The translations under genes were made by a program, and so were the position numbers. A stretch of DNA of 61,144 bases, counting the filler, from Asterionella formosa (Eukaryota), in assembly GCA_002256025.1 (NCBI GenBank). It is 4 parts of 4 records of this genome, joined end to end, with 100 filler letters (N's around TTAATTAATTAA, not from the genome) between each part and the next. Parts side by side here need not be neighbours in the genome. Positions count along the whole stretch, not along the records: positions 45,940 to 61,144 come from NKIB01005559.1; 3 more parts are not named here. The stretch is one strand, 5' to 3'. The notes under the pieces are model-generated. The model saw only the letters and a program-made list of their open reading frames with translations. It had not been told where the DNA came from and ran no database searches. Every line of letters starts with the position of its first letter. Positions within the stretch are counted from its first letter, which is position 1. Positions 9,066 through 61,144 of this stretch are shown piece after piece.

Positions 9066-9107
9066 AGTTACATCGACATGATATTCCAATACTACTTGGT
9101 ACACATG

Positions 9108-9358
9108 TTTGAGCAGGATGTTTGTAAGACTGTAAGGATCATGAAAGTCATCATTGTTAATAATTTAATCCAAAACAAGGTTATTCAAGGAAGTTAATGT
9201 GTACAGGAATCTTACCTGGGTATTACAAAAATTTTGAGCAGGATGTTTGTAAGACTGTAAGGATCATGAAAGTCATCATTGTTAATAATTTTATCCAAAA
9301 CAAGGTTATTCAAGGGAAGTTAATGTGTACAGGAATCTTACCTGGGTATTACAAAATT
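9108..9358. repeat. Tandem duplication, 2 x ~125 bp, near identical
   Basis: tttgagcaggatgtttgtaagactg...gggtattacaaaa begins at 9108 and again at 9233. Confidence 0.95.
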
Positions 9359-9489
9359 TTCTAGTATGAAATAATTCACCAACTACTCCGGTTACATGAG
9401 AGGATGTTATCGATGCAACGCACAATATCCTTTCGTTTTGTATAGACAGTAGTGGCAAGACTGAAATCACGGTATCCACTAATAGAAGA

Positions 9490-15219: not shown

Positions 15220-15319
15220 NNNNNNNNNNNNNNNNNNNNNNNNNNNNNNNNNNNNNNNNNNNNTTAATTAATTAANNNNNNNNNNNNNNNNNNNNNNNNN
15301 NNNNNNNNNNNNNNNNNNN
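15220..15319. other. Artificial scaffold spacer N44-TTAATTAATTAA-N44
   Basis: 100 nt; stop-codon linker at 15264-15275; identical copies at 30532 and 45840. Confidence 0.97.
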
Positions 15320-30531: not shown

Positions 30532-30631
30532 NNNNNNNNNNNNNNNNNNNNNNNNNNNNNNNNNNNNNNNNNNNNTTAATTAATTAANNNNNNNNNNNNN
30601 NNNNNNNNNNNNNNNNNNNNNNNNNNNNNNN
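30532..30631. other. Artificial scaffold spacer N44-TTAATTAATTAA-N44
   Basis: Linker at 30576-30587. Confidence 0.97.
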
Positions 30632-41362: not shown

Positions 41363-42300
41363 ACCGGATGAGTGCTGCAAAAAGGGATTTCTTTCGCACG
41401 TCGTCGCCCCATTAACATTCTCCCCTGCAGTGGATGGTTGATCAGGAATCACGAACCAAACGAAGTCAAGACAATCTGAAGTACCGATAGATTTACCGGA
41501 ATCTCGTACTACCGGTATTATGTTTTAAATATCATAACACGACTGGGGGTAGAATTTTCCTGTTGTTGCTTTATTACATTATTAGAAAATGGCAGTTGTT
41601 GATTTGGTATTTTTCATGTTCTTTTGATACATAGATGCTACGCTCTTTCTGACTTGTCGTACAACCAGGGTAAGGAAGGTCCGGTTAAACACTTTTTAAC
41701 TTTGACAAAGATAAAGCTAAATATCTCGATTACTGGACCTTCCTTGGTTTTAGAAAATGGCAGTTTATGGCGATTCTTGCTTGCCAGTGACTGTACCGTT
41801 CTCCCTCTTGGCGAAAGCAAAATTGCATCAATTCTTAAAATTTCTCCGGGGCCATTTTGCCTCCTACGATTTTCTCCGGCTCAAGTACCTGGTACCAGGT
41901 ACCCTGGTGCCCTAATGAGCGGAATCACATGAGCTACAGATTCCTAAATAATATTTATATATACATTTTAAATTGGCAACTACGTGTAAAAAAACGTTTT
42001 TGGGCTTTTTCGATTTTCACTTTTGGCTACTATCTCGAGCAAAATGTAGATGCATGAGGACCCAATTTTCTTTGAACCATCTACCGTATTCTCAACATAC
42101 ATACAAAGCACGATATAGTCTATTGAGTCTTGTTCTTGCATGATTACTCAAGTCATCCTGAACAAGACATCTCACACATCCCGATCTTGCTTGCTTAGAC
42201 AATAAGTAAGCATATTTGTTTGTCAATAAGGGGATTGCATGTCTTGGTTTCTAATCAATAAAAATATTAATCCTTGACTCTTTGGATTCCATTTATTTTA

Positions 42301-42930
42301 TCACCCTCCCTGATCTTGAAACCAACAGTCCATAGTCCCATTCATAATGCGACTTGCATGAGTGTCATGAAATTTCTGAATGGCATTCTTTGAGAATAGG
42401 TCTTCAGGATTCTTCAAAGTATTCACATAATCAACTCTAAATCCCCAGCCTGCACCTTTTCTCAAATGAAATGATATCACATCAATGTGAACCAACCTGT
42501 TGATTCTTTTATAAATAGATTGCACTTGTATTGTCTTCATCAATAATCATTTCCACATATTCAACTTCATTGAGTAGACTCATTATAAGCAAAGTTTGTT
42601 TCCTTTGATCAATCTGATAGTGGCACATGCTCTGCTTCAGTACTGGAGGCAGTAACAATCTTTTGTCCTTTATGAATCCAATTCACTAGGCATGCACCAC
42701 CCATTTTACCCAAATATGTAGCTGACTTCAATGTCTTGAACTTGTAATTCATGCGGTGATCTCAATTTCAATTTTCTGTTTCTTTCATCAGTTGCAATGA
42801 ATCCTAACAAACGTTCAACAGCACTTCAATGGGCCTCTACTGGATTCTCTAAATGTTGGGAAAGTTTCCAACATGCATTTGCGCATCATACTTGTCCAAC
42901 TTTCTTCTCAAAATACAACAGTTTACCAAT
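42301..42930 (-). mobile_element. Ty1/Copia retrotransposon remnant: RT C-terminus, RNase H, polypurine tract and start of 3' LTR
   Basis: GKLLY...CANACWKLSQHLENPVEAH*SAVERLLGF (RT); LVNWIHKGQKIVTASSTEAEHVPLSD, EDNTSAI, RVDYVNTLKNPEDLFSKN (RNase H); PPT AGGGAGGG at 42311-42304 directly followed by TG at 42303. Confidence 0.85.
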
Positions 42931-45839: not shown

Positions 45840-45939
45840 NNNNNNNNNNNNNNNNNNNNNNNNNNNNNNNNNNNNNNNNNNNNTTAATTAATTAANNNNN
45901 NNNNNNNNNNNNNNNNNNNNNNNNNNNNNNNNNNNNNNN
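45840..45939. other. Artificial scaffold spacer N44-TTAATTAATTAA-N44
   Basis: Linker at 45884-45895. Confidence 0.97.
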
Positions 45940-48429
45940 TTGGATGGGCTGGATGTGTTCTTTCCTTTCGATCGTATCTACTTGGAACAGCATCAATACA
46001 TGCGTTCCTTGAAGCAATCGTTGGATGCTGGCGGCCACTGTTTGCTTGAAATGCCCACAGGGACAGGCAAGACTGTGTGTTTGTTGAGCCTGATTACCAG
46101 CTATCAGTTTGCCAACCCTTCGGCTGGAAAACTGATTTACTGCACAAGAACTGTTCCGGAAATGAATTCCGTCATGGAAGAATTAGCAACTGTCCTGGAA
46201 TATCGCGACGAGCAATTGCGCCTTTCTGACGAGAGGCAGGGGTTAACTGATTTGGAAGATTCGGTGACAGGTGAAGCAACTGGTGAAGGATCCGGTGAAC
46301 CATCGCCTAAGAAGCCCAGAATTTTCAAGAGAAAGAAAATGGGCCCCATTGGTGGAAAAGGAGCTGGCGGCGCCGGTGTTCTTGCTTTGTGTTTGTCGAG
46401 TCGACGCAACATGTGCGTTCATGAACGCGTCTTGCAGGAATCTGATAGAGAAGCAGTGGATGCCGCATGCAGAACAATGACAGCAAGTTGGGTTACAGAA
46501 CTTGCTCGACAGAATCCCGGATCGATGGAAACATGTAGCTATTTCGACAATTTTCAATCTGCAGGTGAAGCCACTGCAATGCCTAGTGGCGTCTATGACT
46601 TGGCGGAACTCAAAAAATGGGGGAAATCACGTGGATGGTGTCCGTATTTTTTAACACGTAGGGCAATCAATCATGCTAATATTCTTGTGTTTAATTACCA
46701 ATACATGTTGGACCCGAAGGTGGCTAAAATGGTGTCAAAGGAACTCGAAGCCGAATCCATCATTGTTTTTGACGAAGCCCACAACATTGATTCAGTCTGT
46801 ATAGAGGCCCTGAGTGTCAATATCAATGAACGTGCATTGGAACAAGCCACGAGATCTTTGGGAAGATTATCTTCTGAAGTATCGAGAATCAAAAAGACAG
46901 ACAACCAGCGCTTGCAACAGGAATATCAAAATTTGGTTGCTGGGCTAATTGACCAAGGTCTGCTACAAGAACCAACCCAAAATTCGGGACTCTCGAGTAA
47001 CGTTTTAAGTACTGATGTCTTGAATGAATCTGTCCCAGGGAATATCAGACGAGCTGAACACTTCATTGGCTTCATGAAGAAAATTGTTGAGCACTTGAAG
47101 GCACGACTACGAACAGTGGCAGGTCCCAACGGGGGGGTGCAATCAGAAACACCACTGGCATTTTTACATCGAATGACAAATGGAACTTCACTGGAAGCTA
47201 AGCCTCTTAAGTTTGCATACTCACGACTCTCGTCGTTGTTGCGGACCCTTCAGGTGTCCAATTTAGATGATTTCAATGCACTGACCGATGTCGCGGACTT
47301 TTCTACCCTGTTGGCTACATACTCCGAAGGTATTGCGAAATTCGCCATTATTATGGAACCAAACGGGTCGTCAATTCCTGGGGCAGTGGATCCTGTCATT
47401 CAATTGGCTTGCCTTGATGCGTCCTTGGCGATCGCACCGCTCTTTAAACGGTTTGGTAGCGTCATCATTACCTCAGGGACACTATCTCCCATTGACTTGT
47501 ATCCCAAATTGCTAAACTTTGAGCCCTGTATATCGGAATCTTTCAACATGAGTACCTTTCGACCATGTATTCGGCCTTTGGTGATAACTCGGGGATCTGA
47601 TCAATTGGCCGTATCAACGAAATTCGATGATAGAGGCGATGTGGGTGTAGTGCGAAACTATGGAGCAATGTTGGTTGAACTCTGCAGTGTTATTCCTGAT
47701 GGAGTCGTGGCATTCTTCACCTCCTACAGCTATATGGAATCGCTGGTTAGTGAATGGGATGCTATGGGAATTTTGAGAGAGTTGACTAAATCGAAGTTGG
47801 TATTTATCGAGACGAAGGATGTTGTCGAGACGACCCTAGCTTTGGACAACTACCGTCGGGCTTGTGATTGTGGCCGAGGAGCCGTTTTCCTCTCTGTTGC
47901 GCGTGGAAAGGTGTCGGAAGGAATCAACTTTGACCGTCATTATGGGAGGGCTGTGATTATGTTTGGTGTGCCTTTTCAATACACACTGAGTCACGTACTT
48001 CGCGCCAGATTAGAGTACTTGCAAACGCACTTTCAAATCCGCGAGCAGGATTTCCTCAACTTTGATGCCTTGCGCCAAGCAAGTCAGTGTGTTGGACGAG
48101 TTATTCGTAGCAAGACGGATTACGGGTTAATGATCTTTGCCGACAGTCGCTACAATCGCCATGACAAGCGATCAAAGTTGCCGAAGTGGATTCTGCAATT
48201 CCTAGGAGACGCCTATCTTAATTTGAGTACCGACATGGCGATTCAGCACGTGCGACACTTCCTTCGAGTGATGGGACAACCTGTTGATCAGACGGCACTT
48301 CAGAGTGTGCTGCTAACGTTTGAAGAAGTGAATCGAATGAATCCACCACGCAACCTTGCGACTACGACAGCTGGGGAAGGAGGAGCCATGATTGTTTCAT
48401 CTGAAGCCGAGGCAGTTGGTGAACACTAG
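45940..48429 (+). CDS. ERCC2: TFIIH/NER Fe-S DNA helicase XPD (Rad3); first few codons cut off at the scaffold start
   Basis: LEMPTGTGKT, YCTRTVPE, Fe-S cysteines (SRRNMC, AAC, TC, WCPYF), FDEAHNID, TSGTLSP, VARGKVSEGINF, QCVGRVIRSKTDYG. Confidence 0.97.
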   Translation: MDGLDVFFPFDRIYLEQHQYMRSLKQSLDAGGHCLLEMPTGTGKTVCLLSLITSYQFANPSAGKLIYCTRTVPEMNSVMEELATVLEYRDEQLRLSDERQGLTDLEDSVTGEATGEGSGEPSPKKPRIFKRKKMGPIGGKGAGGAGVLALCLSSRRNMCVHERVLQESDREAVDAACRTMTASWVTELARQNPGSMETCSYFDNFQSAGEATAMPSGVYDLAELKKWGKSRGWCPYFLTRRAINHANILVFNYQYMLDPKVAKMVSKELEAESIIVFDEAHNIDSVCIEALSVNINERALEQATRSLGRLSSEVSRIKKTDNQRLQQEYQNLVAGLIDQGLLQEPTQNSGLSSNVLSTDVLNESVPGNIRRAEHFIGFMKKIVEHLKARLRTVAGPNGGVQSETPLAFLHRMTNGTSLEAKPLKFAYSRLSSLLRTLQVSNLDDFNALTDVADFSTLLATYSEGIAKFAIIMEPNGSSIPGAVDPVIQLACLDASLAIAPLFKRFGSVIITSGTLSPIDLYPKLLNFEPCISESFNMSTFRPCIRPLVITRGSDQLAVSTKFDDRGDVGVVRNYGAMLVELCSVIPDGVVAFFTSYSYMESLVSEWDAMGILRELTKSKLVFIETKDVVETTLALDNYRRACDCGRGAVFLSVARGKVSEGINFDRHYGRAVIMFGVPFQYTLSHVLRARLEYLQTHFQIREQDFLNFDALRQASQCVGRVIRSKTDYGLMIFADSRYNRHDKRSKLPKWILQFLGDAYLNLSTDMAIQHVRHFLRVMGQPVDQTALQSVLLTFEEVNRMNPPRNLATTTAGEGGAMIVSSEAEAVGEH

Positions 48430-48918
48430 AATTCGCCGAAAAGAAATTCAATTCAGATATTGATTCGCCCATTTCGTTGCCCTTTGTCGTCATTACGTCT
48501 GCATTGTTTNNNNNNNNNNNNNNNNNNNNNNNNNNNNNNNNNNNNNNNNNNNNNNNNNNNNNNNNNNNNNNNNNNNNNNNNNNNNNNNNNNNNNNNNNNN
48601 NNNNNNNNNNNNNNNNNNNNNNNNNNNNNNNNNNNNNNNNNNNNNNNNNNNNNNNNNNNNNNNNNNNNNNNNNNNNNNNNNNNNNNNNNNNNNNNNNNNN
48701 NNNNNNNNNNNNNNNNNNNNNNNNNNNNNNNNNNNNNNNNNNNNNNNNNNNNNNNNNNNNNNNNNNNNNNNNNNNNNNNNNNNNNNNNNNNNNNNNNNNN
48801 NNNNNNNNNNNNNNNNNNNNNNNNNNNNNNNNNNNNNNNNNNNNNNNNNNNNNNNNNNNNNNNNNNNNNNNNNNNNNNNNNNNNNNNNNNNNNNNNNNNN
48901 NNNNNNNNNNNNNNNNNN

Positions 48919-50289
48919 ATCGTAGGAGCAAGAGTATTCGTATTGAAAGGGCGCACCTCCGCTGTGATCACTGGATGGTCGAAAGAGATCCATATCTAAC
49001 AACTGAAAAAATACCGCTCGTAAGATTTTTTCTGGAAATCTATCTGCCGACCCTTTGTAGGATTGATACTCTTGAAGCATCCGGTGAAGATTCAAAGGCT
49101 TGGGTACCTCTTCTTTTTCTGCATCTCGAGCCAGAATACGCCGCGCAGACAGGACAAGCGCGACTTGGGGACCCGAAAGGTCTTTTAGCAACATAATGCG
49201 AGCGTTGTGGCAATGTTCGTCAATCCCATGAAACGATGCTCCTTGTGCGACCAGGGCTTCTTCCAATTTATCCGTAAGGCATGGCAGTTCATTCGATAAA
49301 TAAATTTGCATTCGATAAAGCGATAGTGCATAATACAAAACGCGGTTAAACCATCGCAGGTCCTTGGATATCGCGTAGTTGCGCTGCATCACCTTTCGCA
49401 GTCTTACAATGTCATGTGCCGAATTTTCATCTGTAGACAGTAGAGCCTGCAACTGTTTCGAAAAAGGTGTCTCCACTTCAGTGGTTGTTGTATTTTGTAA
49501 AATGTGCATAAGATCTGAAAAAGATTTAAATGGCGATATGTAGAACACGTTTGATGCTCCTTCTGCTCGACTCTTGACGCGCTTTTCCAAGAGGCTGATC
49601 GCTCCTACATTGGTGGTCGTTCCAATAACGCATAAAGAAGTTCCACGGGAGGACGATACACGATCGAGTAAGTGATAGAGCAGCAATTGCCGGTTGCTCA
49701 TAGTCATTTCATCCTTCAACAATTGTTTGTCCATCGATGGCGTCGATCCAATCATGGCGTCAAAGTCTTCCAAAACGATACAAATGGGAATCTTTTCAGC
49801 ATTCATAAAGTTGAGTATTTCGTCCAACAAGGAGATGCTGGACGTGAACGATGTTGCTCGCAATCGCACGAGGTCATTTGTCGCCTTGTGATCGCCGTCC
49901 TTCTTAGTTTCGGCAAAGGCAATGTCATATAATTGTCGAATGATTTCCCTGACCACAACAGCCACGTCGTCTCCCTTCAATACCAATCCATGCAGTCGTA
50001 CGATCCGAATTCGATGTACTTGAATTGATTTTAAGCATGCCTCAATGAGCTGCGTCTTTCCGGATCCTCGTGGTCCCATAAGCAGCAGTGAAACATTCTT
50101 GCCCTGATCCACCAGACACGGCTTGAGAATCGAGCATATCTCGTCGTACTGGAGCTCCAATCCACGTGGTCGTTTCAATGGACGAGACGAAGGGTAGTGA
50201 TCAGCCAGGCGATCCAAGATTGTATCCAGGGCTTCAATCATCGCTTCCTTATTACCCATGTAGGGGATGGTCTTTTCTGCTTCGTTCAT
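48919..50289 (-). CDS. ORC4: Origin recognition complex subunit 4 (C-terminus lost in gap 48510-48918)
   Basis: SLLLMGPRGSGKT Walker A, VRLHGLV, NRQLLLYHLLD, LLEKRVKSR, LKDLSGPQVALV. Confidence 0.88.
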
Positions 50290-50862
50290 CGGTTGAGTAG
50301 GCAGCAGGCACCGGTTGTCAAGTTCGTCCTTTTCAAACTTCCGTGGTTGTGCGTAGTAAGGTGATTGTCGTCTATGATAGAAACGATAGACTAAAATGAG
50401 TCATCATCACTTACCTGCAAGAAGTTGCGGGAATTGTGCTGAAACCAAATAAAGTTTTAGCTATCTTTATCCGTTATAAATTTTTTATTTAGCTAAGCAA
50501 AATGTAGGGTGAATTGCAGCAACATACCACTACCGCTACTCTGTGATCTGTGATATATACCGTTATATATATATATCATACCGGTATTCGGGTTGGAGTT
50601 CTCCATTCTCATCAACTCCCTTACCGGTAATCTGTACACCCATACGATACAACGATAGATATTAGAGCTTTGATCAAACTACAAACGAAGCACCACAAAC
50701 AAAACTCTACCGCATCAAAAAGTCCTATTGCAAGCAGCAAGAAGAGAGCAGCATCAAGGAGCTACTCCTTTTATTCAACAAAACAAAACAAAACGAGTCG
50801 ATCAATCTCTTTTTGGCATGCTGCTGTCGCTTTTGAAACTCAGTATTATTATTTAATCTACA

Positions 50863-51261
50863 ATGAGTAATCCCAGAGACAGCCCTCCAGGACCCAACTC
50901 CCGACATGTGATACCCCGAGATCCTCCCGACAACCAATCACAATCCTTGACGTCGTACATTGGTAATGGCGGCATTGTTTACGCTCCCTTTATGGCAATG
51001 ATGTTGCTGTTTCAGTTGTTATTCAAAGCATTCTTCACCGTGTTTGGAAACACTCGTCATCTTGTTTCAAATTACTTTGTTCTCAGTAGAGAACAAAATG
51101 ATGTACTGAAGGAGATGCCAGTAGAACAAGAGCGGCAGCAACATGAGCTTCAACAATTACAGAAAATGCAAGTGCACCAACGTGATCGAGTTGAAGATCT
51201 TAAACGACGCATTGACAAGTTGGAAGCGAAGCAACGTGAACGAGAGGCTATGAAACAATGA
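50863..51261 (+). CDS. Hypothetical small membrane-anchored coiled-coil protein (132 aa)
   Basis: ATG in acaATG context; hydrophobic segment APFMAMMLLFQLLFKAFFTVF; Q/E/R heptad tail. Confidence 0.5.
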   Translation: MSNPRDSPPGPNSRHVIPRDPPDNQSQSLTSYIGNGGIVYAPFMAMMLLFQLLFKAFFTVFGNTRHLVSNYFVLSREQNDVLKEMPVEQERQQHELQQLQKMQVHQRDRVEDLKRRIDKLEAKQREREAMKQ

Positions 51262-51640
51262 AGGAATTCGTGGGAGGGTGGGCTGTCTAAATCAAGCAAA
51301 TATTCAACGGTGACAAATAAAGAATCATCAGCGAGGACTGGAACGAGTAAATAAGACGATGGCCCGCAAATTCCATCATCCGGTGAATTGTGTATGTAGT
51401 GCCCACGCCATGTAGTCAAGCACAACTGATTTTAGTTTCACTGATCGGAGCCTATTAAAAACGAATATTTTGGGGGCTTCTCGAAATGTAGATACATGTC
51501 ACTTTTTTATGTTGTTTGCCTGCTATATGCTAAATTCAGTTTCAAGCAATACGGAACAACCATGATACGAAGCTCTCTCATTTAATTTGTCATTGCATAA
51601 ATAGTGACACCCACAAAGAATTCACAGTTCACTCCAGCCG

Positions 51641-52252
51641 TTACGGCGACGACCTACTTTCTGCTTGTTCGTTAATATATTCCCTTGTCTTTTCAAACGC
51701 AAATCCTGCGACATGGAACAAACTTTTTCCCATGCCAGCGACACCGCTTCCTACTGCATAAAATACTGCCCTCCCTAAAGCTGCACCAGGATCTGACAGT
51801 GCTTCATGTCTATCATACTTGGCCCGTCTCTTCCGATCACTTAATATTTCATATGCCAATTTGATACGTTCCCACTCATCTCTGACATCCTCCATATTTT
51901 TGCAATAACCAGGCAATAGTTCTCTGTTTCGCGCTCCGTCAGGATGGTACCTTCGTGACAATTGGCGGTAGGCCAATTTCACATCGGCCGTGGAGCACTT
52001 GCGATCTACCTTGAGGACAGCATAAGGGTTAAGAATTTCTCCACTGTAGGTGGCAAACTCATCCAAGAGCTTTCCACCGCCTGTCTGACCGGAGGATCCC
52101 TTTCTTGGAGGGTTCAAAAAGAGAGGAGTCCTTGGCCTCACCCGTACTGTCAGATCACGAGAGGAGGATGTTGTTGCAGTAAAGGCAACGGCAGACACAA
52201 GCAACAAAGTCAAATAACACAAAAATGTAATTTGAGAACGTATGGACTTCAT
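51641..52252 (-). CDS. DnaJ (J-domain) protein, probably plastid targeted (203 aa)
   Basis: Signal ...LLLVSAVA|F, then a S/T/R-rich transit peptide; NPYAVLKV...YRQLSRRYHPDG...IKLAYEILSD..RRAKYD. Confidence 0.92.
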   Translation of the reverse strand: MKSIRSQITFLCYLTLLLVSAVAFTATTSSSRDLTVRVRPRTPLFLNPPRKGSSGQTGGGKLLDEFATYSGEILNPYAVLKVDRKCSTADVKLAYRQLSRRYHPDGARNRELLPGYCKNMEDVRDEWERIKLAYEILSDRKRRAKYDRHEALSDPGAALGRAVFYAVGSGVAGMGKSLFHVAGFAFEKTREYINEQAESRSSP

Positions 52253-53259
52253 TGTCGAATGAATACGTTGTTGTTTCGGGTGTCAATGAATGTACAATCG
52301 TTTTGCAGGGCGAGGACGACAGGCAACGTGGTTACTATGTGAACTTCGTGAGTTCATTGGCAACTGAAACTCAGTTTTGTATGCTGGTTGTTCATGACAC
52401 ATAAGATATATATACATGTAGCCAGACGAGAAGCAAAGGGAGGTGTTAGGGCCATCATGGCTGAAGCACACATTATTTAGATTCCTTTGCGTAGTACCGA
52501 ATGTATGTGGAATCCAGCCAACTGCAGAAATGACGGAGAGATGACGACACACGACAATGATGACATATGCAACAGAAGCAAATCATCATGCAACTATGCG
52601 AAATACTCTGGTTGGCGATACTGTGATGACGCAAGAATCCAGGTTTCCAAGTATAGTACCAGGTACTGCTCCGTTCTACTTATGTACCCGGTACATGGTA
52701 CCCTGTGGAAGGTCCGGGGAAACACGCTTTTTACTTAAGTAAAAATTAAGCAAAACTGCACCTCGATTACCGGACCTTCGCTGGTACTGTATACCCGTAC
52801 ATATACGCTAGGGCACTTTTTCAGAAGGATTTCCGTCCATTCGAGGGAGTCGATAATTTCAATTGGAGCCAATTGGGATATTGATATACCCGGCCGGTAT
52901 ACAGTGAATGATGTCAAACGAATACCAGTGCTACCAGGTACCTAAAACGGAGTGAGTACTTAACGCGATCATTTGAAGTTGAGGCAAATCTTTGCATACA
53001 GACCAGGTATAGTTTCGCAACGGGAATCGGCAACTCTCGCGCACTCTGTAGTTCGTTCAGGTGAGACCAACCATGACAGTTGTGTAGCGGTAACACTCTT
53101 GACTGACGCTTAAGCTTTCAGAAGCGGATAATGGCCACGTTCTGCAGCTAGTACTAGTCCAGTTGAGGAAACCAACGGGACAAACATGGCCGATCTATCT
53201 TTCTCATGACTTCACCGTTCCCCTTCTGACAGACCAATCACAAACCCAAATACATCAAG

Positions 53260-53886
53260 ATGACCAAGGCTGTTGCTCTTCTCCTTGCTAGCTTGGCCAC
53301 GTCGGCTTGTGCCTTTGCCCCTTCCAGACAAACTTCCAGCACTGTTGCCTTGAACTTGGAACCTGTCACGAACGAAGGTGCCAACTTTCCTGAGACGTTT
53401 GGCAAGCCTTGGGACCCTCTTGGTCTTATGACCAGTTTGGATGATCGTGGTGTCAGGTGGTTCCAAGCGGCCGAGGTCAAGCACGGCCGTATTGCCATGA
53501 TGGCCACTCTTGGCTGGATGGCCCAAGTGAGTGGTTTCCACTTCGGAGGAATGCTGTCCCCTACTGCTGGGGTCTCCTTTGAAGATGTCTCCAAGGTGGC
53601 TCCATTCGAGACCTTTTCCAAAATCCCAGAAGCGGGCTTTTACCAAATCCTCTTCATTATTGGAGCTGTGGAGGGATACCAAGAGATGCGTCAGCCTCAT
53701 TACATTTATGGTGGTTTGCCTGGTGATTTGGGCGCTGCTCGTGCCAAGGAATCGTCCCTCCCTCGCCTTCAAGCTGCTGAGATCAAGAACGGACGTCTTG
53801 CAATGATTGGAATGGCATCCTTTTTTTCAGCTGTAGCCCTTCCTGGATCTGTCCCTACCATGCCTGGATTCTTCCTTCCTCATTAA
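53260..53886 (+). CDS. Fucoxanthin-chlorophyll a/c light-harvesting protein (Lhc), intronless, 208 aa
   Basis: ACA|FAP targeting motif; WDPLGL, AAEVKHGRIAM, AEIKNGRLAM, PGSVP. Confidence 0.96.
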   Translation: MTKAVALLLASLATSACAFAPSRQTSSTVALNLEPVTNEGANFPETFGKPWDPLGLMTSLDDRGVRWFQAAEVKHGRIAMMATLGWMAQVSGFHFGGMLSPTAGVSFEDVSKVAPFETFSKIPEAGFYQILFIIGAVEGYQEMRQPHYIYGGLPGDLGAARAKESSLPRLQAAEIKNGRLAMIGMASFFSAVALPGSVPTMPGFFLPH

Positions 53887-54107
53887 AGCCACACGAAATG
53901 AATGAAACTGAACAGATGATGACAGCGAGATGGAGCGTCATGTCGTTTCTCTCTTGCATGTACAATTCCGCTCCTTTTCCTTGCTTGCTGCTTGTAAATG
54001 ATAGTGCAATTGATTTCTGCCAAATGTCTAACTCTAGAGTACTGCATACTAAATTCAGTCGTTTTGCGCGCAATTTACTTTCTGTCCTCCTTTTGTTATC
54101 TTTTATA

Positions 54108-54995
54108 TCACAACAAATTTTCCAGATGAAGTTTTTCCTTGAGTTCTTGTAAAAGCGTCATAACCAAGTTCTTGGACAAGCCCATGACCGAATCTTCGGT
54201 TCCCTCTATACGTTCCAGATGTTCTCTCACGAATGGATGTTCGACCATCAAACCACCGGCGCAGTCCAAAACAGGTGCATCATCTTGCAGCAAGCGATCT
54301 ATCAAATCTAACCCTTGTTCATTTGAATCAGCAATGGATGAATGAAAGACAATCGTAGCCGTATCAACTCCTGATACCTGTACCATGGATGGTACATGTG
54401 TTAACACACACGATCCGACAGTGCTCGGTGGAGCTAGTGCATATCTGGACAAGAATTCCTTTGCTTGTTGTATTGTGTTTGGTTTTTCCAAAATGTCTCC
54501 TTGGTGTGTCACTACTTGATCTCCTGTCAAGACAATCCAATTTGTTCGATCTTTAGAAATAACATTAGGCAAGTCCTCCTTACACCGTCCTGCTTGTAAT
54601 TCATTTATCAAATGAGTGGCTTTCGCCTTGGCCAATGTCAAGACCAAATCTTGGGGTAAGTCTTGAGTTCTGTCTCCCAACGTTTGCTCGTCAATAGGAC
54701 GTTTAATGACGTGAAAGTCGATTCCCATTTCCTTGAGAATTAACTTTCTAGTAAAGGACCCAGATCCTAAAATAAGTGGTACAGGAAGCCCTAATTCTTG
54801 TAATGGATCAGTACTACCGGTAGAACTACTGATCGTCATGGAGTGGATGATAGTTTGTGAGTGCCGTGTGATGCTGGGAACAAATGCTGATGGAATCGTT
54901 GGTGTTGCTGTTGTTCTTGTCAAGGCTGCCAACATGCAACAACACTTCAAAAACAATGCTCCTGATGATAGATTGATTTGTGGAAGTAAGAGCAT
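54108..54995 (-). CDS. Maf-like nucleoside triphosphate pyrophosphatase with N-terminal targeting extension
   Basis: LILGSGSFTRKLIL, AKAKA, TGDQVV, ILEKP, CAGGLMVEHP, IEGTEDSVMGL. Confidence 0.92.
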   Translation of the reverse strand: MLLLPQINLSSGALFLKCCCMLAALTRTTATPTIPSAFVPSITRHSQTIIHSMTISSSTGSTDPLQELGLPVPLILGSGSFTRKLILKEMGIDFHVIKRPIDEQTLGDRTQDLPQDLVLTLAKAKATHLINELQAGRCKEDLPNVISKDRTNWIVLTGDQVVTHQGDILEKPNTIQQAKEFLSRYALAPPSTVGSCVLTHVPSMVQVSGVDTATIVFHSSIADSNEQGLDLIDRLLQDDAPVLDCAGGLMVEHPFVREHLERIEGTEDSVMGLSKNLVMTLLQELKEKLHLENLL

Positions 54996-55459
54996 GAAAC
55001 GTCAAAATCGGATGTGCAGCTCCTCCGCCGCCACCGATGATGTTGGTGGTGATGGAAATGAATGCCGGTAGTATGATTGGAACCACAAGAACTATACCGG
55101 TAGATTCATCGAAGTAGAACAATGATAGTAGGTAGACATGAAAGTCGTACCGGTACAGGTTTCATTACCGATGTATAAAAGCTACCGTACCAGGTACCAG
55201 TACCGGTACTGGTACCTGGAAGCACTGCTAACGGTACTGGTACCTGGTACCAGTGGGTATGCATGTACCGGTATGCCGATTTGTTGATCATGATCATTCC
55301 TGCCTGCCTTGTAAAAAATGCTCTTGTTTGTTCCTCCCACCGCCATGAAATCATCATTCATGCTGACCACATCACTGTATTTAATCCTGCATGCACCTAC
55401 TACCACTTGCACTTCCTCTTATTCTTTACCTCCCAACAGCTCTGATCTCTTCCATCAAC

Positions 55460-56381
55460 ATGACGGAACAACCAAAGACCATTCAAAAGTGAGTGCCAGT
55501 GCAAGTAATACCGGTACAGCAATAGTAATAACAATAACAATCACACCCTGCTTCGATGACGTTTCGCGAAACACCACTTTTTCCACTAGTGGCTTGCCGT
55601 CATTTGCTCATATATAATAGTGGAACTAACCATGCCATTTCTCGCGTCCTGCAGCGTCATTGTCGTTGTGGCCATGGCAAGTGAAGCTAGACCCTTCGTC
55701 GAGCACTTAGACCTAGAACCCAACACTGACTTTTTCCCACCAGAGGTTCCGTTTTTGGCCTATTCCGGATCACACCACGGATGCGCCTTGACTGTCGTGA
55801 CCAATGGCGTCGATCATGTCTACGGGTCCGGTGTTGATAATTGCGGGACTGTACCAGCATCACTGGTCACCTTTCTTGCCTTGCAAAAAGATCCTGATTG
55901 CGATTTAATCATCAATGCTGGGACCTGTGGTGGATTTGCTAGCAAGGGAGCTGAAATTGGTGATGTCTTTTTGACTACTGGTGTGGCCAACCATGATCGT
56001 CGTATCCCCATTCCTCCTTTTATTCCATATGGAATTGGCAAAATAAATACCATTGCCGCTCCTCATCTGGTCACCAAACACGGATTTAAAACTGGCATCT
56101 GTACGACTGGAAATTCGTTGGACGCGACCGAGGAAGATAGGAAACACATGTTGGCCAACGATGCATCGTGCAAGGATATGGAAGCCGCAGCTGTGGCATG
56201 GTCGTGCCAATTGTACAAAAAACCATACTTAGGGGTCAAGGTGGTGACAGATATTGTGGATGGAGACCGGGCGACACATGAGGAATTTTTGGAGAATTTG
56301 CACAAGGCGGCCGATTCCTTGCAGATGGCACTACCAAAGGTCATTGAACATATTTGTGGTAGGCGCTTTGATGATTTGTAG
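55460..56381 (+). CDS. MTN: 5'-methylthioadenosine/S-adenosylhomocysteine nucleosidase (plant MTN type), 2 exons, ~251 aa
   Basis: Exon 1 55460-55488 (MTEQPKTIQ), intron 55489-55654 (GTGAGT..ACTAAC..GCAG), frame kept. AMASEA, INAGTCGGF, HDRRIP, TTGNSLD, KDMEAAAV, VTDIVDG, EEFLENL. Confidence 0.93.
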
Positions 56382-56569
56382 ACTACCGGTGGTGCATGGA
56401 AGAGTATGTAGTTTGTAATTTAACACTTTAATTCTGCCAGCGAATTTTTGTATTAGCGTTTTATTGGAAGGCTCTAGGTTAGTAGTCCAAGAGAAAAACT
56501 GTCGCCGCATTTCGTAAAAGGGTTGTATCTGACAAGGGGGCTTCATGGGATTTTCCGAGTCACTACACA

Positions 56570-58090
56570 CTACAGTATATTCGCTTCTACTACTGGCGTG
56601 GAGGGTTTGGTCCAAAATGGATATTTTGCATACACTTCATGTCCTTCCGGTTCATCCGACGAACCCACAGTAAGTCGTTCAATGGCTGCCCATGCACTCA
56701 TAGCACCTTGATCGGTGCATAATCGTGGTGGGGGTACATGCATATCCCACTTTCGTTCGGCACACAGTTGGTTCAATCTAGATCTCAATTCTTGATTGGC
56801 TGCCACACCTCCCACAACAACCAGTGTGCTAATACTGCTTTCGTCTTGCATCAACATCATTGCTCGTATCAATCGTTGTTCAATGTGTACTATTGCCACA
56901 TGTTGAAACGACGCCGCGAGATTGGCCTTGTCTTGGTAAGGGAGTTGGTCGACGGAGGATAGCTCTTGTTCTGCCGCCATTTTTTCGGCCGCCCGGCGAA
57001 TGTTCGTTTTAAGGCCCGCATAGGAAAAGTCACAATTCTTGTGTTTTTGCATCGGAATAGTCAATGGGATGCTTTTGGGATCTCCATCTTTGGCTAATTT
57101 CTCCACAGCAGGACCGCCTCCACCACCAATAGGTAGGCCCAACAGTCTTGCTGTCTTATCGAATGCTTCCCCTAGTGAATCGTCAATCGTTCCTCCTATT
57201 GTTGTGTATTGACCAACACCCACACATTTGAGTAACAGACAGTGTCCTCCACTCACCAAAAGTGCCAAAAATGGAAATTCCAAGGCTCGTGTGGTGGCAT
57301 GAGTCGTTTCTGTGGCTGCAATCTTCCTTGTTATGTCCGGGTCTAAAGGTAGTCGTGCCATGAGAATGTGCGCTTCCAAATGATGGACTCCTACAAAGGG
57401 TATGTGGTATTGCAGAGCCAGTGCTTTAGCCTTGTTCGTTCCTACTCGTAAGCATATTTCCAATCCAGGTCCCACTGTCACTCCAATGGCATGAATCTGT
57501 TCCATAGTAACCCCTGCCGAATCCAAGGCATCCTGAACGACCCCATCCATGGCATCCATATGAGCTTGTTTGGCAAGGTTCGGTACGACCCCACCAAATG
57601 GTTCATGAATGTCCGATTGACTAGCCAAGGCTTCTCCTAATATCGTTCCATTGGAAGACAGCACGGCAGCTCCAGTGTCATCACAGGACGATTCAATCCC
57701 CAAGACAATAAATTCTTGAGTCCTATCTGGAAGTCCTGACTTGGCAGCATAGGCCTGACCATCCCAAGGTTGATAAATGTTTGACCATTGGCCTCGATCC
57801 ACAGCCTTGGCCATACCGATGAATTCTCGACGCTTTTCTTTCGAGTTTTTTTTCTTTTGGGGGGAGGGGATGGAGGGAACTGCGTCGTCGTTGTTGTTGA
57901 GTGGTGATTGTTCCATCCATGCTGCAGTCGGACGAATGGTCCGTCGCTGTTGGCAAATGGCAACAAATCCAGTTGCCAGGTGCTGCCGACTTTTTGTATT
58001 CCATACACCAAGAAGCATGATTAGGGAACACGTTGCTGCAAAGGAGTTGTATGAATGGCGACACCTTCTAATACTGCGACTCCTCACCAT
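56570..58090 (-). CDS. tsaD: Organellar tRNA N6-threonylcarbamoyltransferase (TsaD/Qri7/OSGEPL1 type), 506 aa
   Basis: LGIESSCDDTG, VTVGPGL, HHLEAH, LLVSGGH, DDSLGEAFDK, FSYAGLK, GGVAAN, LCTDQGAM; long N-terminal presequence. Confidence 0.94.
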   Translation of the reverse strand: MVRSRSIRRCRHSYNSFAATCSLIMLLGVWNTKSRQHLATGFVAICQQRRTIRPTAAWMEQSPLNNNDDAVPSIPSPQKKKNSKEKRREFIGMAKAVDRGQWSNIYQPWDGQAYAAKSGLPDRTQEFIVLGIESSCDDTGAAVLSSNGTILGEALASQSDIHEPFGGVVPNLAKQAHMDAMDGVVQDALDSAGVTMEQIHAIGVTVGPGLEICLRVGTNKAKALALQYHIPFVGVHHLEAHILMARLPLDPDITRKIAATETTHATTRALEFPFLALLVSGGHCLLLKCVGVGQYTTIGGTIDDSLGEAFDKTARLLGLPIGGGGGPAVEKLAKDGDPKSIPLTIPMQKHKNCDFSYAGLKTNIRRAAEKMAAEQELSSVDQLPYQDKANLAASFQHVAIVHIEQRLIRAMMLMQDESSISTLVVVGGVAANQELRSRLNQLCAERKWDMHVPPPRLCTDQGAMSAWAAIERLTVGSSDEPEGHEVYAKYPFWTKPSTPVVEANIL

Positions 58091-58781
58091 GGTAGAAGAT
58101 TGGTACTGCTGGTATTCTGTAAAAGTCGAAAATCAAATATACCACCGGTGGTTGGTACCGGTACCCTGGTACCTGGTACTCACATTCTATCATCCTACTA
58201 CATACCCGTAGATCACCGGTTGTTACAATACCAAGTAATGAATACATTTTATACATGTGTACCTGGTACCACGTCCTGTGTTGATGGTGGGCGGATTTGT
58301 AACAACATACCTTGTAGGAGTACCAGGTATTGTAGTATGCATGATATGATATCCATGACATACAATGTTTTCTTTCCCTTATAGACTACCGGTACTAGAT
58401 ATCTGGTGACTGGCTGATGGGGTAGTGAGACTGGTAAAAATAAGAGGCAACAGCAAAATATATATGTAAATAAAATGAATAGAGCTATACATTTGATACT
58501 TTGTCAACGGATAGTGCTGGTAGATGACATGGCACGAGAACCACACCAATATTGGTGTGACAAACAAGCAAGGGAAGTCAAAGGATAGAAGAAGGTGAAT
58601 GAAATGAATGTGCAAAAGGATATAGATATGCATGTGTGTGTGTGTGTGTTAGAGGATTGCTTGAACAAGTTCGATCGTCCTGCATCTCCAGTTTGGTAGT
58701 TAAATATATACAATTAATTTGTACATCATGGTGATGGTCCAACCAAAGTGCATCTCACATTCGAAGCATAGAATAGAAACC

Positions 58782-59165
58782 TCATTCATTATCAGGAATC
58801 ATTGCTTCAAATACTCCCATGAGCAGAAGTGCATGCAATAATTTGCTTGGAAAGTTGGATGTCAATGGCATACTGTCTTGAATACAGATACGTTGCAATG
58901 CACCACTAGCCAATCGTCCAAGCATGGTGCCCACAAAGGCAAGCTGACGACGAGGTGCCAATCTTCTTGCTGGAGTCGAACTGCTGATGGTATTATGACT
59001 ACTACTACTGCTGCTGACGGAGACACACTCCATAGTACTACCGGTCGTAGTAACTGTCATCGACACGAAATGAGACGTGCCCTTTGTAGTTGCGAAGGAC
59101 ATTACAACATGAGTATTACCAGCCAACAGCAGGAGTACATTCAAGAGGAGCAAAAGAGTCTTCAT
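58782..59165 (-). CDS. Hypothetical small protein with signal peptide (possible plastid targeting), ~127 aa
   Basis: MKTLLLLLNVLLLLAGNTHVVMS|F, S/T-rich segment, hydrophobic C-terminus; no known domain. Confidence 0.4.
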   Translation of the reverse strand: MKTLLLLLNVLLLLAGNTHVVMSFATTKGTSHFVSMTVTTTGSTMECVSVSSSSSSHNTISSSTPARRLAPRRQLAFVGTMLGRLASGALQRICIQDSMPLTSNFPSKLLHALLLMGVFEAMIPDNE

Positions 59166-59686
59166 CGTGGACCTTGCTTGTATGTCATTCAATCAACAGA
59201 AAGACTTGTAAATGGCTGACAGCAAAGTATACGAGGCCAACCACTTGCTTCCTGCAATAATGAACAAGGCCTGTGCTTTGATGGCGATCGTGCATCATTG
59301 TGAACCTTGCTTGTTCTGAAAAGATCCGAACCAGAATTATAAAACATACTGGTACGGAGTTTTCTCAACTATTCCTCATGTCTGATTGGTTGATTTCAAT
59401 TTAATTAATTCTGCCTGCTGCTATTTCATGGTGACGCACTGATTCTCGGTGCGTGCCTGTCGGCCGAGTTTTTTTCATTTGTCGGAAGCAACTTTGAAGG
59501 CATCTTTTTCCTTGTTTTGGTTCCTCGCTTGTTCTCTCTGGCCCATGCATGAGCAGAAGTATTATGATCATAAAAGATATGTAGTATGTTTCATAGCCCA
59601 TTTGTACTCCCCTATTTCTAGGCAAGTATTTCATAGTGCTACTCCACCTGCCAACAAGACCTGTGCTTCCTTATATTCGTGTTAGC

Positions 59687-59898
59687 GTAGCTGAGTCCCC
59701 AACCACCTTGTTTCGCGAAAGGTGATTTTCTTAGCTGCAGTGTTACCGGTAGGGAAACTCCGACTGCCTAGTAGGAAGGCGGCACAACCTGCATGTAGGG
59801 GGGCAACCCACTATTTCTTGCGCACCAGGCAAGAACGTGCGGGACGGTTTGGCACCGAGAGTAGAAGTCGAACACAATGATTGCTTCTCAAAAAGCAA
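59687..59898 (+). ncRNA. Candidate multibranch structured RNA, family unknown
   Basis: Nine nested helices by eye, several G.U pairs on the plus strand and a GCAA tetraloop (details in findings). No expression evidence. Confidence 0.5.
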
Positions 59899-60117
59899 AG
59901 GCAACGTGACAAACCACTACCTGGTACCGTATATACCGGTAAGCTAGCTATTCCCTTAGTATTATCATCATGCGATGTAATAAATTTATGTATTCGCTCT
60001 ACATAGTAGATCAAATTTACCTACCGATACGCACTAAAGGTACATTTTGCATACAACAACACGGTATGTACATTCATCATACACACACGGTCACAAAAAT
60101 CGTAACAAGCTTCATAT

Positions 60118-60328
60118 GGCGTTGCTGAAGGCAATACACGCCCGAGGTGGTCTCTTGCCTGCGAGTATACATGTGTTCGAGACTGGGTGGCGCGAGTAGG
60201 TTGACCGTACGAGTGGCGCCCCCGGCGCTGCGAGAAGGTCACCCTACGAGTGCCATCCCAGTCGAGTACACATTTATACGAGAAGGCAAGTAGCCGCCGA
60301 GAAGGGTATTGTTGTGGCAATTCCCGCT
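60118..60328 (+). ncRNA. Candidate rod-shaped structured RNA (or ssDNA hairpin) with five periodic CGAG/CGAG tandem G.A motifs, family unknown
   Basis: Ten CGAG copies pair symmetrically about loop 60221-60223, separated by complementary non-repetitive helices. The fold is seen directly; RNA status is inferred. Confidence 0.65.
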
Positions 60329-60398
60329 CTAGCTATCGTCGCGTCATTCGCTTACTTACTGCCCACAAATTTAGCATAAATGTCAATTTTAGCCTACT

Positions 60399-60590
60399 AT
60401 TGCCCATCATATAAAATATATTTTGGATATTTCCTATCTTCACCTCGAAAATTGCCAAAGGTCCGACATTGCCCATCATTAAAATATATTTTATATATTT
60501 CAGATGTTCGCATTTTGGCAAGACAACAGACACCAATTGCCCCTCGGTTTTCCAGCCCTGGGATTGCCGAAATCGGCAAGGGGTCTACTT
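60399..60590. repeat. Short direct repeats plus terminal palindrome, possibly the end of a mobile element
   Basis: attgcccatcat(a)taaaatatatttt at 60399 and 60468, further attgcc copies, palindrome ttgccga-aa-tcggcaa at 60564-60579. Confidence 0.5.
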
Positions 60591-61144
60591 AAGGAAACAA
60601 TTTTTATATACTATACAGATTCTAATAATTTATATCTAGAATTCACCTCGTTTTTGTTCGTCTCCTGAAAAGTGGACTCCGGCAATTCACCTTTCACCAT
60701 GCCAATCGTCGTCCATCATGACCGGTTTGAAGCGAAATCAGTTCCGCGATGACGCCAGTAGCGATTCTTTGCCTAACGGATGCAGTTGATTGTTGGATTG
60801 CTTGTCTTCTCAAGGTATTCATGTAGTCGCATCGTCCATATTTCGTCGGACGCACGATGATATCGATACATCTGATGTTGGTGGCAAGTTTTTGCTCCGG
60901 TCATGTATGCAATGATGCTTAACGGATATTCTACCGGTACCGGCAGTCAGCTAGTAGTCTACATACGTACGTGGTACTAAAAACAACCATGCATGCTTTA
61001 ACGCTTACTTTGAACAGGTTATAATATTATCTCTGTAGACTCGGTATTATTTTTACGAGACCTGAAATGTTGAATTATATCGTTCACATATTCATTGATT
61101 TTACGTACCGTATGCCCGATTTCGTCCTCACAAATATAGTTCTC

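Follow-up and report, generated by a model that had tools for sequence, protein, structure and literature searches.

A plus-strand hairpin with five in-register tandem G.A motifs at the left end of a mobile repeat in Asterionella formosa DNA: a candidate cis-acting RNA scaffold

Introduction

What keeps five CGAG tetranucleotides facing five others along one long hairpin? The question arises from a segment of about 200 nt in a window of Asterionella formosa DNA (GCA_002256025.1; the window is the whole 61,144-nt stretch analysed, filler included). An earlier note on this DNA described a rod-like fold here and named three alternatives for it: a new noncoding RNA, a viroid- or retrozyme-like rod, or a structure of a mobile element. 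Our preferred reading, to which we give a probability of roughly 0.45, is that the rod acts in cis as the plus-strand RNA scaffold of a mobile element and offers one polar tandem-G.A motif, five times over, to a protein. In the open-access literature searched, we found no diatom or transposon rod of this kind described.

Results

CGAG is concentrated in the rod far beyond chance. Ten copies lie at the positions the earlier note had listed, with steps between starts of 19, 16, 15 and 17 nt on the left arm and 16, 16, 16 and 19 nt on the right. Across the remaining window, some 58,000 non-N bases, CGAG occurs 133 times, giving 0.50 expected per 220 nt. The Poisson probability of ten or more is 1.8e-10, or about 1e-5 once multiplied by all window positions, and any other 220-nt window holds at most four. 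For CTCG, a scan of the whole window found no 220-nt window with four or more. The features of the rod are as follows.

60123 to 60330, plus strand: rod hairpin, the first ~200 nt of a repeated element, placed by folds and the left boundary
60143 to 60146, plus strand: CGAG L1, opposite R5 (60298-60301), with a basal irregular loop containing C.A mismatches
60162 to 60165, plus strand: CGAG L2, opposite R4 (60279-60282), basal neighbour G.A
60178 to 60181, plus strand: CGAG L3, opposite R3 (60263-60266), basal neighbour U.U, apical pair 60182/60262
60193 to 60196, plus strand: CGAG L4, opposite R2 (60247-60250), basal neighbour G.U
60210 to 60213, plus strand: CGAG L5, opposite R1 (60231-60234), basal A.A and a one-base bulge
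60221 to 60223, plus strand: apical loop ccc, from the fold
60231 to 60301, plus strand: CGAG R1 to R5, starting at 60231, 60247, 60263, 60279 and 60298

The segment folds stably and prefers one strand. As RNA, the plus strand of 60100-60345 has a minimum free energy (MFE) of -120.6 kcal/mol (z -7.15, 0 of 200 shuffles as low), against -98.1 (z -4.66) for the minus strand, a difference of 22.5 kcal/mol. The plus-strand rod is about 100 bp long when folded and its MFE structure contains 86 pairs, 75 Watson-Crick and 11 G.U; at its base the first bases of the element, TGCTG, pair with 60316-60320. Every complementary spacer and both outer helices proposed in the earlier note appear in this structure, and all five left CGAG face a right CGAG, as it had claimed. 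Its statement that the rod is no tandem repeat also holds, TRF returning 0 rows at a score of at least 30. These results support a fold and a CGAG register that are non-random and strand-specific.

The predicted loop motif is polar rather than two-fold symmetric. At each of the five left sites, CGAG against CGAG gives, in the MFE structure, a 2x2 ga/ga loop whose closing pairs are C-G and G-C. On the basal side the neighbour is non-Watson-Crick at all five loops (C.A, G.A, U.U, G.U and A.A), and on the apical side all five have a Watson-Crick or wobble pair. The symmetric motifs of the earlier note thus keep their register and lose their two-fold symmetry.

The rod belongs to a multi-copy mobile repeat, several copies of which share one terminus amid unrelated flanks. 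Thirty-six contigs in four runs break at 60122/60123 and then enter dissimilar flanks (22 plus 8 in X21, three in X11, two in X19 and one in X2), and the same left boundary with other flanks recurs in a metagenome contig (L002) and in the copy behind a predicted protein (P0001). The element or its boundary was found in those 36 contigs from four public runs, in two metagenome contigs and in one predicted protein. Among the earlier alternatives, this shared boundary with its many different flanks bears out the mobile-element structure. One X2 contig (284 nt, depth 4.7) is a candidate empty site, joining 59913-60125 to sequence with 0 matches in the window, so the right end of the insertion would lie outside the window. 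A pyrimidine directly precedes the element at every junction read (9 of 9).

The element runs from 60123 to the window end (61144), at least 1022 nt, and its match in a second metagenome contig (L016) continues 41 nt past that end. Besides the rod it shows the following features.

60122 to 60123, no strand assigned: left terminus of the element, where homology among copies begins and upstream of which flanks differ
60130 to 60686, no strand assigned: cluster of eight ATTGCC/GGCAAT hexamers, five forward and three reverse
60331 to 61144, plus strand: rest of the element, non-coding, common to L002 (to 60874) and L016 (to 61144)
60399 to 60441 and 60468 to 60509 (within 60399 to 60509), plus strand: two direct repeats of ~43 nt, 86% alike, each starting with ATTGCC and containing an A/T-rich, TATA-like run
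60564 to 60579, plus strand: small perfect hairpin, its 6-bp stem formed from the ATTGCC/GGCAAT hexamer core, with a 4-nt loop

Across the remaining window these hexamers average about 0.5 per kb with both orientations counted together. Folding of 60331-60700 is modest (z -2.66 on the plus strand, -0.71 on the minus). The visible 1022 nt of the element contains no ORF or Pfam domain and so offers no candidate binding protein. Stop-to-stop ORFs in L016 reach at most 83 aa; of nine searched against Pfam at E<=1, seven had no family and two gave three weak sub-cut-off matches, the best being DUF3096 at 19.1 bits against a cut-off of 23.3. LTRs start with TG and end with CA; this element opens with TG at 60123, and its other end lies outside the window. 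An LTR retrotransposon would also have a second direct LTR copy, with a primer-binding site following the first LTR and a polypurine tract ahead of the second; inspection of 60600-60720 by eye showed no tRNA-3'-end-like site. The inverted first 18 nt, searched as a candidate terminal inverted repeat, matched once in the window, with three mismatches, at 42525-42542 in a decayed copia-like coding remnant, which we take as chance.

On its right side the rod shows no shared boundary. L002, L016 and contigs from X2 (record 14) and X19 (record 11) all run colinearly across 60330. A MITE or foldback transposon, of which the rod would be the whole, was rejected on this ground: only the left side is bounded, and these four contigs continue past 60330. 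The palindrome of L002 reaches 20-29 nt to the left of the 60123 terminus, so that position may not be the end of every element form.

This continuity also bears on the other two alternatives of the earlier note, a free-standing new ncRNA gene and an integrated viroid- or retrozyme-like rod. The extreme z-score of the rod-like fold, the failure of any known family to match and the presence of the rod in RNA libraries would suit such a reading, and the rod resembles viroid and HDV-like rods and retrozymes in being long, imperfectly paired and regularly interrupted in its helices. Unlike them, however, it is at most the first fifth of a longer linear genomic element. Contigs pass unbroken from the rod through 815 nt or more of further conserved element, the sharp and shared boundary is on the left side only, and no viroid-like or self-cleaving ribozyme family, hammerhead or other, scored (Rfam; window, 59900-60550, L002 and L016). 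Head-to-tail joints yield no consistent circular junction: each is one low-depth contig, and they disagree among themselves. On this evidence we regard both alternatives as highly improbable.

Searches of Rfam and of prokaryote, viral, plasmid and phage sequences likewise gave no usable match. In keeping with the undescribed structured RNA of the earlier note, Rfam 15 gave 0 matches at gathering score across the whole window, and 0 at E<=10 in 59900-60550; in L002 and L016 it gave only noise outside the rod (ST7-OT4_1, 16.4 bits against 50; sR28, 13.1 against 39). A six-CGAG register pattern at the observed spacings has 0 occurrences in viral contigs and 42 loci in metagenome contigs, of which two, L002 and L016, are blastn homologs. 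The other 40 belong to an unrelated short CGAGAC-rich element that meets the spacing through low complexity, and were excluded from counts. Two exact stretches, 25 nt from the apical part and 35 nt from downstream, have 0 matches in prokaryote genome contigs, an exact 21-nt stretch has 0 in viral contigs, and blastn with 60100-61144 found no plasmid or phage match. A protein search with a minus-strand frame across the rod returned a single candidate, P0001, at 79% identity over half of the query, too small a yield for covariation.

The element is present in RNA libraries. It is listed in 24 runs, six of them metatranscriptomes from six studies. Our contig comparison covered four of the 24 (X2, X11, X19 and X21), including two metatranscriptomes (X19 and X21); the other 20 were not counted toward habitat or expression, nor were gaps in X11 and X19 cover. 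X19 contains a 383-nt contig over 60136-60517, and X21 has 468 contigs on 59900-60600, of which the element accounts for nearly all. Assembled contigs say nothing of RNA strand, ends or level, and RNA libraries may contain DNA. Some RNA-library contigs enter the rod from a foreign flank, as either read-through transcription or carried-over DNA would produce.

Being long, stable and nearly duplex as RNA, and lying on a transcribed repeat, the fold could also feed RNA interference. The rod would then be a small-RNA precursor or trigger: a transposon transcript would carry it as a long, imperfect inverted repeat, the RNAi machinery of the host would dice it, and its regular loops would limit or phase the processing. 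In the available part of PMC4247016, expression of an inverted-repeat construct triggers silencing in a diatom, but canonical pre-miRNA-like hairpins are not found in the diatom of that paper. Small-RNA precursors, moreover, need no identical non-canonical motif five times in register, and a self-silencing trigger should be counter-selected, yet the rod is among the best-kept parts of the element. We consider this account improbable.

Judged from sequence, variation in the wider family supports the predicted fold and appears to respect its helix. The pair 60182/60262, just apical to L3, is A-U in the window, G.U in L002, L016, X2, X11 and X19, and mostly G-C in X21 (G in 5066.6 of 5091.9 depth, C in 864.6 of 1226.2); it is the only pair with a full compensatory series. 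Position 60274 is G in all four runs and both metagenome loci, mending a C-G pair broken only in the window copy. Pair-breaking minor variants are 60154 C>A in L002 and 60155 T>A at 6-14% of depth in three runs, and R1 reads CAAG (place 60232) in ~11% of X21 depth. In the L002 rod, a family-consensus copy with 89 Watson-Crick pairs, G.U outnumbers A.C by 11 to 3 (one-sided P 0.029) and A.G outnumbers C.U by 15 to 3 (P 0.004). Both excesses point to the plus strand as the favoured one, in line with the earlier argument from G.T pairs and with the more stable plus-strand fold.

Copies also differ in how much of the array they keep. In L016, R4 has changed to the exact Watson-Crick complement of L2, which implies that a copy can lose a loop and that the two arms interact as DNA or cDNA. 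Copies diverge from each other by 1-4% over the terminal ~600 nt, whereas L002 diverges by 15-17% beyond 60723, as expected of an end required in cis.

Could the rod be a functionless palindrome, an inverted duplication at the element end that hitch-hikes with a recently amplified repeat? The copies are young, so conservation at 1-4% divergence proves little by itself; the 270 nt after the rod are conserved at least as well; and a loop can be erased, as in L016. An inverted duplication, however, puts CTCG opposite CGAG, and turning out five CGAG partners needs ten specific substitutions. Nor would neutrality predict one basal-side mismatch polarity at all five loops, the strand-favouring excesses of G.U over A.C and A.G over C.U, or a pair that varies among A-U, G.U and G-C. 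We give a neutral origin a low likelihood.

A further rival places the fold in DNA. The rod would be the single-stranded hairpin ending a DNA-based element (a rolling-circle, Rep or other ssDNA-intermediate transposon or replicon), in which unwound plus-strand DNA folds and the CGAG blocks are nuclease/transposase recognition or stalling sites. The available text of PMC10085684 reports CGAG/CGAG blocks as experimentally established, thermally stable DNA hairpin elements; that such blocks are no less well documented in DNA hairpins counts against the RNA scaffold. Under DNA parameters the rod again folds better on the plus strand (-56.1, z -5.44, against -50.2, z -4.38 on the minus), and it adjoins the element terminus. 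Dense ATTGCC/GGCAAT hexamers near that end, which we take to look like subterminal transposase-binding repeats, would fit too, as would the arm-to-arm correction of L016 and the palindrome extension of L002, in which the arms meet as DNA or cDNA.

Other evidence tells against a DNA hairpin. The visible sequence holds no Rep or transposase, the element is abundant in RNA-library assemblies, and eleven G.T wobbles cost DNA more stability than G.U costs RNA. The terminal hairpins known from Rep transposons span tens of bases. Helitrons have a 5' TC and a 3' CTRR with a short hairpin, and insert between A and T; here the first two bases do not fit, the left end being T/TG instead of TC, and the preceding base is T or C, never A. 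Rep-type ends (Helitron, IS200/IS605, IS91) do share with the rod a strand-specific imperfect hairpin read single-stranded, as the accessible portion of the Replitron preprint presents them. They are, however, about ten times shorter and lack a repeated internal motif; the hairpin in that portion has an 11-bp palindrome, against 200 bases here, and no Rep gene is present at this locus. The same portion reports Replitrons as not detected in diatoms, and a Replitron was set aside. We hold a DNA hairpin to be unlikely.

Discussion

We favour a cis-acting RNA scaffold. The rod would be the conserved domain at the left end of an uncharacterised mobile element, one that is multi-copy and insertion-polymorphic and resides in a diatom-like alga's nuclear genome. 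Upon plus-strand transcription, the first ~200 nt would fold into a ~100-bp helix that shows one polar loop motif every ~16 bp, or ~1.5 helical turns, each running in order through a non-canonical pair, C-G, tandem sheared G.A/A.G and G-C. The loops would be protein-binding sites, and the array may bring one protein onto the element RNA, as several copies or as an oligomer. Candidates are the element's own nucleic-acid-binding protein and a host export or packaging factor, and loading would mark the RNA for packaging, export or copying.

A bolder version is possible, though we lean against it: the rod may be the first of a new class of transposon-borne RNA scaffolds, defined by a 5'-terminal helix with a periodic polar tandem-G.A array. 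Such an array would nucleate cooperative binding of an element or host protein for packaging, export or priming. It would amount to an RNA-virus-like repetitive structural motif signal in a widespread diatom nuclear element, strong in environmental transcriptomes.

The individual loops have known relatives in RNA and DNA. In kink-turns bound by L7Ae/15.5K, another non-canonical pair comes after the tandem sheared G.A pairs. The predicted fold has the G.A/A.G juxtaposition five times, its sheared geometry not being readable from sequence. A kink-turn assignment was rejected: it needs a three-base bulge on one strand, and the loops here are symmetric 2x2, with a one-base bulge only at L5. Guide-RNA scaffolds of the TnpB/Fanzor or IscB type, which we assume a plain rod does not resemble, were set aside, no ORF adjoining the rod. 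The identical unit of C:G, tandem G:A and G:C occurs in CGAG-block DNA hairpins of the AUTS2 promoter region and in centromere-type sheared G.A duplexes (PMC10085684, available part). Those blocks zip consecutive repeats, whereas the blocks of the rod stand 11-15 bp apart in a helix of unique sequence.

The array as a whole finds its likenesses in viral RNAs. In embecoviruses the packaging signal is a long stem that bears identical 2-nt bulges, four plus two of them (PMC8206606), and such repetitive structural motif stems are believed to bring in multiple copies of a structural protein (PMC8206606; PMC5930304), both according to the available parts of these papers. Signals of this MHV type and the rod alike place one small non-helical motif at regular intervals along a long stem. 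In the embecovirus signal, however, the motif is a 2-nt bulge and the 95-nt stem lies within a coronavirus ORF, whereas the rod has symmetric 2x2 tandem G.A loops with a polar flanking mismatch at the non-coding end of a nuclear mobile element; the two have no sequence or Rfam relationship, and the function of the rod is putative. The constitutive transport element (CTE) of type-D retroviruses, as the accessible text of PMC4330390 describes it, is a two-fold symmetric stem-loop bound by a dimeric NXF1:NXT1 platform. Like the proposed scaffold, it is a rod-like, cis-acting RNA with same-sequence sites on both arms, in its case from a retroelement. The CTE differs in having two larger loops related by rotation about mid-stem, against five small self-facing loops, and in lying near the 3' end of the viral RNA rather than at the left end of the element; we found no homology between them.

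If the rod proved neutral or a mere silencing trigger, it would be a curiosity of one transposon family. If the scaffold reading is true, the rod is a compact RNA (or ssDNA) module in which one 4-nt self-facing motif is used five times and the other helix bases are free to vary. It would then be an unusually clean natural system in which to study protein recognition of tandem G.A loops and the specificity that arrays of weak sites create. The element that carries it would be an undescribed diatom mobile element, present in four of four public assemblies compared, two of which are metatranscriptomes, and would matter for diatom genome annotation and for environmental RNA data. The invariant rod would provide a handle to the full element and its protein.

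A hairpin carrying ten CGAG motifs

The rod, a ~200-nt hairpin at 60123-60330 (plus strand), carries ten CGAG motifs, and a recount of the sequence placed all ten where the earlier note had listed them.

CGAG starts at 60143, 60162, 60178, 60193 and 60210, plus strand: left-arm sites L1 to L5
CGAG starts at 60231, 60247, 60263, 60279 and 60298, plus strand: right-arm sites R1 to R5

Outside the rod, CGAG occurs 133 times in ~58,000 non-N bases, giving an expectation of 0.50 per 220 nt; the Poisson probability of ten or more is 1.8e-10, or ~1e-5 allowing for every position. Every other 220-nt stretch of the window has four CGAG at most, and CTCG never reaches four in any of them.

The earlier note's rod, with every left CGAG facing a right one, is recovered intact in the predicted structure. 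The plus-strand RNA of 60100-60345 folds at -120.6 kcal/mol (z -7.15), which none of 200 shuffles equalled. Of the 86 pairs in its minimum free energy (MFE) structure, 11 are G.U; L1-R5, L2-R4, L3-R3, L4-R2 and L5-R1 face each other as 2x2 'ga/ga' loops, each with a closing C-G and a closing G-C pair. The plus strand had been proposed as the folded one, and it is the more stable under both RNA (minus strand -98.1, z -4.66) and DNA parameters (-56.1 vs -50.2). In these predicted folds, the neighbour towards the rod base is non-Watson-Crick at all five loops (C.A, G.A, U.U, G.U, A.A) and the neighbour towards the ccc loop is a Watson-Crick or wobble pair, making the motif directional. All five loops lack the three-base bulge of a kink-turn, so the rod cannot be read as an array of kink-turns. 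Nor is it a tandem repeat, in line with the earlier rejection of one: Tandem Repeats Finder gave no result; a plain inverted duplication, likewise dismissed, could not place CGAG against CGAG five times.

The rod as the end of a mobile element

The rod lies on the last of four scaffolds (45940-61144), which are joined at 15220-15319, 30532-30631 and 45840-45939 by linkers, each a 12-nt all-frame stop sequence with 44 N on either side; seven more N gaps of 244-576 bases lie within scaffolds. The genes upstream of the rod are ordinary nuclear ones of a photosynthetic eukaryote, with DnaJ, chlorophyll a/b-binding, Maf, PNP_UDP_1 and TsaD domains. Between the Maf-like and PNP_UDP_1 genes, 55187-55250 holds a 22-nt inverted pair (95%) of GTACC-type units, and the first scaffold has, right at its beginning (137-234), two 46-nt arms that are 98% complementary and 6 nt apart. 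By eye, ~42280-42700 (minus strand) resembles a decayed C-terminal pol end of Ty1/copia type, with a purine run and then a TG-initial sequence after it; this stretch is unrelated to the rod element.

Public sequencing data revealed a sharp left boundary. A search with 60060-60400 matched 24 runs, six of which are metatranscriptomes, from 20 studies, with 0.24-0.86 of sampled words present. We compared contigs of four runs with 59900-60600: X2 and X11 (labelled 'DNA?') and X19 and X21 (RNA). In all four, matching begins abruptly at 60122/60123 and continues rightward to the end of the compared stretch (60600). Thirty-six contigs break at this point (X21 22+8, X11 3, X19 2, X2 1) with dissimilar leftward flanks, which agree among pooled junction contigs at 0.37-0.58. 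One 284-nt X2 contig, at a low depth of 4.7, follows the window's left flank (59913-60125) and then runs into 65 nt absent from the window, as an empty insertion site would look.

Metagenome contigs and a protein database supplied further copies. A pattern fixing nothing but the register, with six CGAG spaced as in the rod, matched 42 contigs, two of them blastn homologs: L002 (reverse strand) matches 60122-60874 at 94.7% with a left flank different from the window's, and L016 matches 60175-61144 at 95.0%, extending 41 nt beyond the window end. The other 40 (L001, L003-L015, L017-L042) are not homologs and were set aside; they carry an unrelated short repeat that begins CAGGGATGGGCA (or closely similar letters), is dense in CGAGAC units and resembles a miniature DNA transposon bearing subterminal repeats, its terminus presumably hAT-like. 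The minus-strand frame across the rod had one candidate and one hit in a protein database, P0001, a diverged left-arm copy that shares the window's boundary with a different flank again; CAAG at its L2 and L4 reflects CpG transitions. In all nine junctions read (those of the window and L002, that inferred from P0001, and six consensus strings from the runs), a pyrimidine precedes the element's TG (at 60122 in the window), which reflects either a preferred target or a first base that varies.

The element spans at least 1022 nt, since matches run to the window end and the scaffold terminates inside it. Its visible part has no ORF above 83 aa, and Pfam at E<=1 gives three weak hits, each under its curated cut-off. 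ATTGCC/GGCAAT hexamers number eight in the first ~570 nt vs ~0.5 per kb elsewhere, and two 43-nt direct repeats contain A/T-rich TATA-like runs. Copies diverge by 1-4% across the first ~600 nt, and L002 by 15-17% beyond 60723, a mosaic that fits a terminal region required in cis. There is no CpG depletion (observed/expected 1.05 in the rod, 1.33 in the rest of the element, 0.76 in the window).

Because contigs pass 60330 colinearly, the rod is not a self-contained foldback MITE. The same contigs, the element's length and the common left boundary uphold the earlier note's mobile-element interpretation and count against its independent ncRNA gene, making a free-standing ncRNA or viroid-like rod highly improbable; no recognisable ribozyme is present.

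Variation within the fold

Comparison of copies gives evidence both for and against the fold. L002 agrees with the majority in the runs at each of the four rod positions that set the window apart; its rod has 89 Watson-Crick pairs, with G.U exceeding A.C (11 vs 3, one-sided P 0.029). A.G also exceeds C.U (15 vs 3, P 0.004), a contrast that vanishes without the ten motif A.G (5 vs 3, P 0.36). Pair 60182/60262 is A-U in the window, G.U in L002, L016, X2, X11 and X19, and mostly G-C in X21 (G 5066.6/5091.9 depth, C 864.6/1226.2 depth), variation that preserves the helix. At 60274 every source but the window has G, pairing with C60170, so that mismatch is private; 60315 lies in a loop. Against the fold, pair-breaking variants occur (60154 C>A in L002; 60155 T>A at 6-14% of depth in three runs), R1 is CAAG in 11% of X21 depth, and the rod is not less variable than the next 270 nt (listed variable places, 5 in 208 nt vs 12 in 270 nt). 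We consider a neutral palindrome improbable.

Two single copies add to the points against the fold. In L016 the R4 site (window 60279-60283) is the exact complement of L2 through three substitutions together. Three simultaneous changes can arise only by arm-to-arm copying, a sign of templated correction between arms, and the plain complement shows how the unselected state appears.

In L002, a stretch of 20-29 nt abutting the boundary on its left is the reverse complement of the bases that follow the rod on its right, which lengthens the rod (MFE -160.4, z -12.3). Such a layout would be expected if a minus-strand 3' end at 60123 had snapped back and primed synthesis, but 5 of the 29 letters do not match and the extension is seen at no other junction. 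Further left lies a diverged, direct-oriented piece that resembles (66% over 59 nt) the ATTGCC repeat unit of the element. The arrangement suggests nesting, tandem arrangement or snap-back synthesis.

Presence in RNA libraries

Both RNA libraries compared contain the element. X19 yields a contig of 383 nt that covers 60136-60517 and has 7 differences, and X21 yields 468 contigs on 59900-60600, nearly all on the element, with summed depths of 1908-10466 in full bins of 60140-60595 vs 0-2.4 in left-flank bins (X2: ~23-38 vs 4.7). Summed contig depth is a poor expression measure, contigs carry no strand or end information and RNA libraries can contain DNA, so we conclude no more than that RNA preparations contain the element, probably in the form of RNA. 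That the rod is a precursor or trigger of small RNAs seems quite unlikely.

A candidate protein-loading scaffold

Self-facing CGAG in RNA forms a block of C:G, tandem sheared G:A and G:C, as thermodynamic and NMR work established. NMR shows the same block in DNA (PMC10085684). Because self-facing CGAG forms this block, the rod would be a stiff helix presenting five copies of one small, directional, non-helical surface. At 16-bp steps, ~1.5 turns, neighbouring sites would lie on opposite sides of the helix. The closest functional precedents are viral packaging signals, which use 'repetitive structural motifs' (PMC8206606), and the CTE of type-D retroviruses, which is two-fold symmetric and read by a dimeric export factor (PMC4330390). 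From the five-site geometry and these precedents, we tentatively adopt, at a probability of about 0.45, the reading of the rod as a cis-acting plus-strand RNA scaffold by which the transcript of the element would be loaded with multiple copies of a single protein. It is unlikely that the rod is instead an end structure of single-stranded DNA, serving an enzyme of DNA-based transposition or replication; the remaining probability goes to explanations we have not thought of.

No Rfam 15 family matches the rod or element, a match that the earlier note had said would remove novelty, and searches of prokaryote species genomes, viral contigs, plasmids and phages did not find the sequence. A Replitron identity was set aside, as a preprint reports no detection of Replitrons in diatoms. 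The CGAG array has no described counterpart in Rfam 15 or the open-access literature searched. We regard the rod as a structured cis-element of a mobile element, a kind already known.
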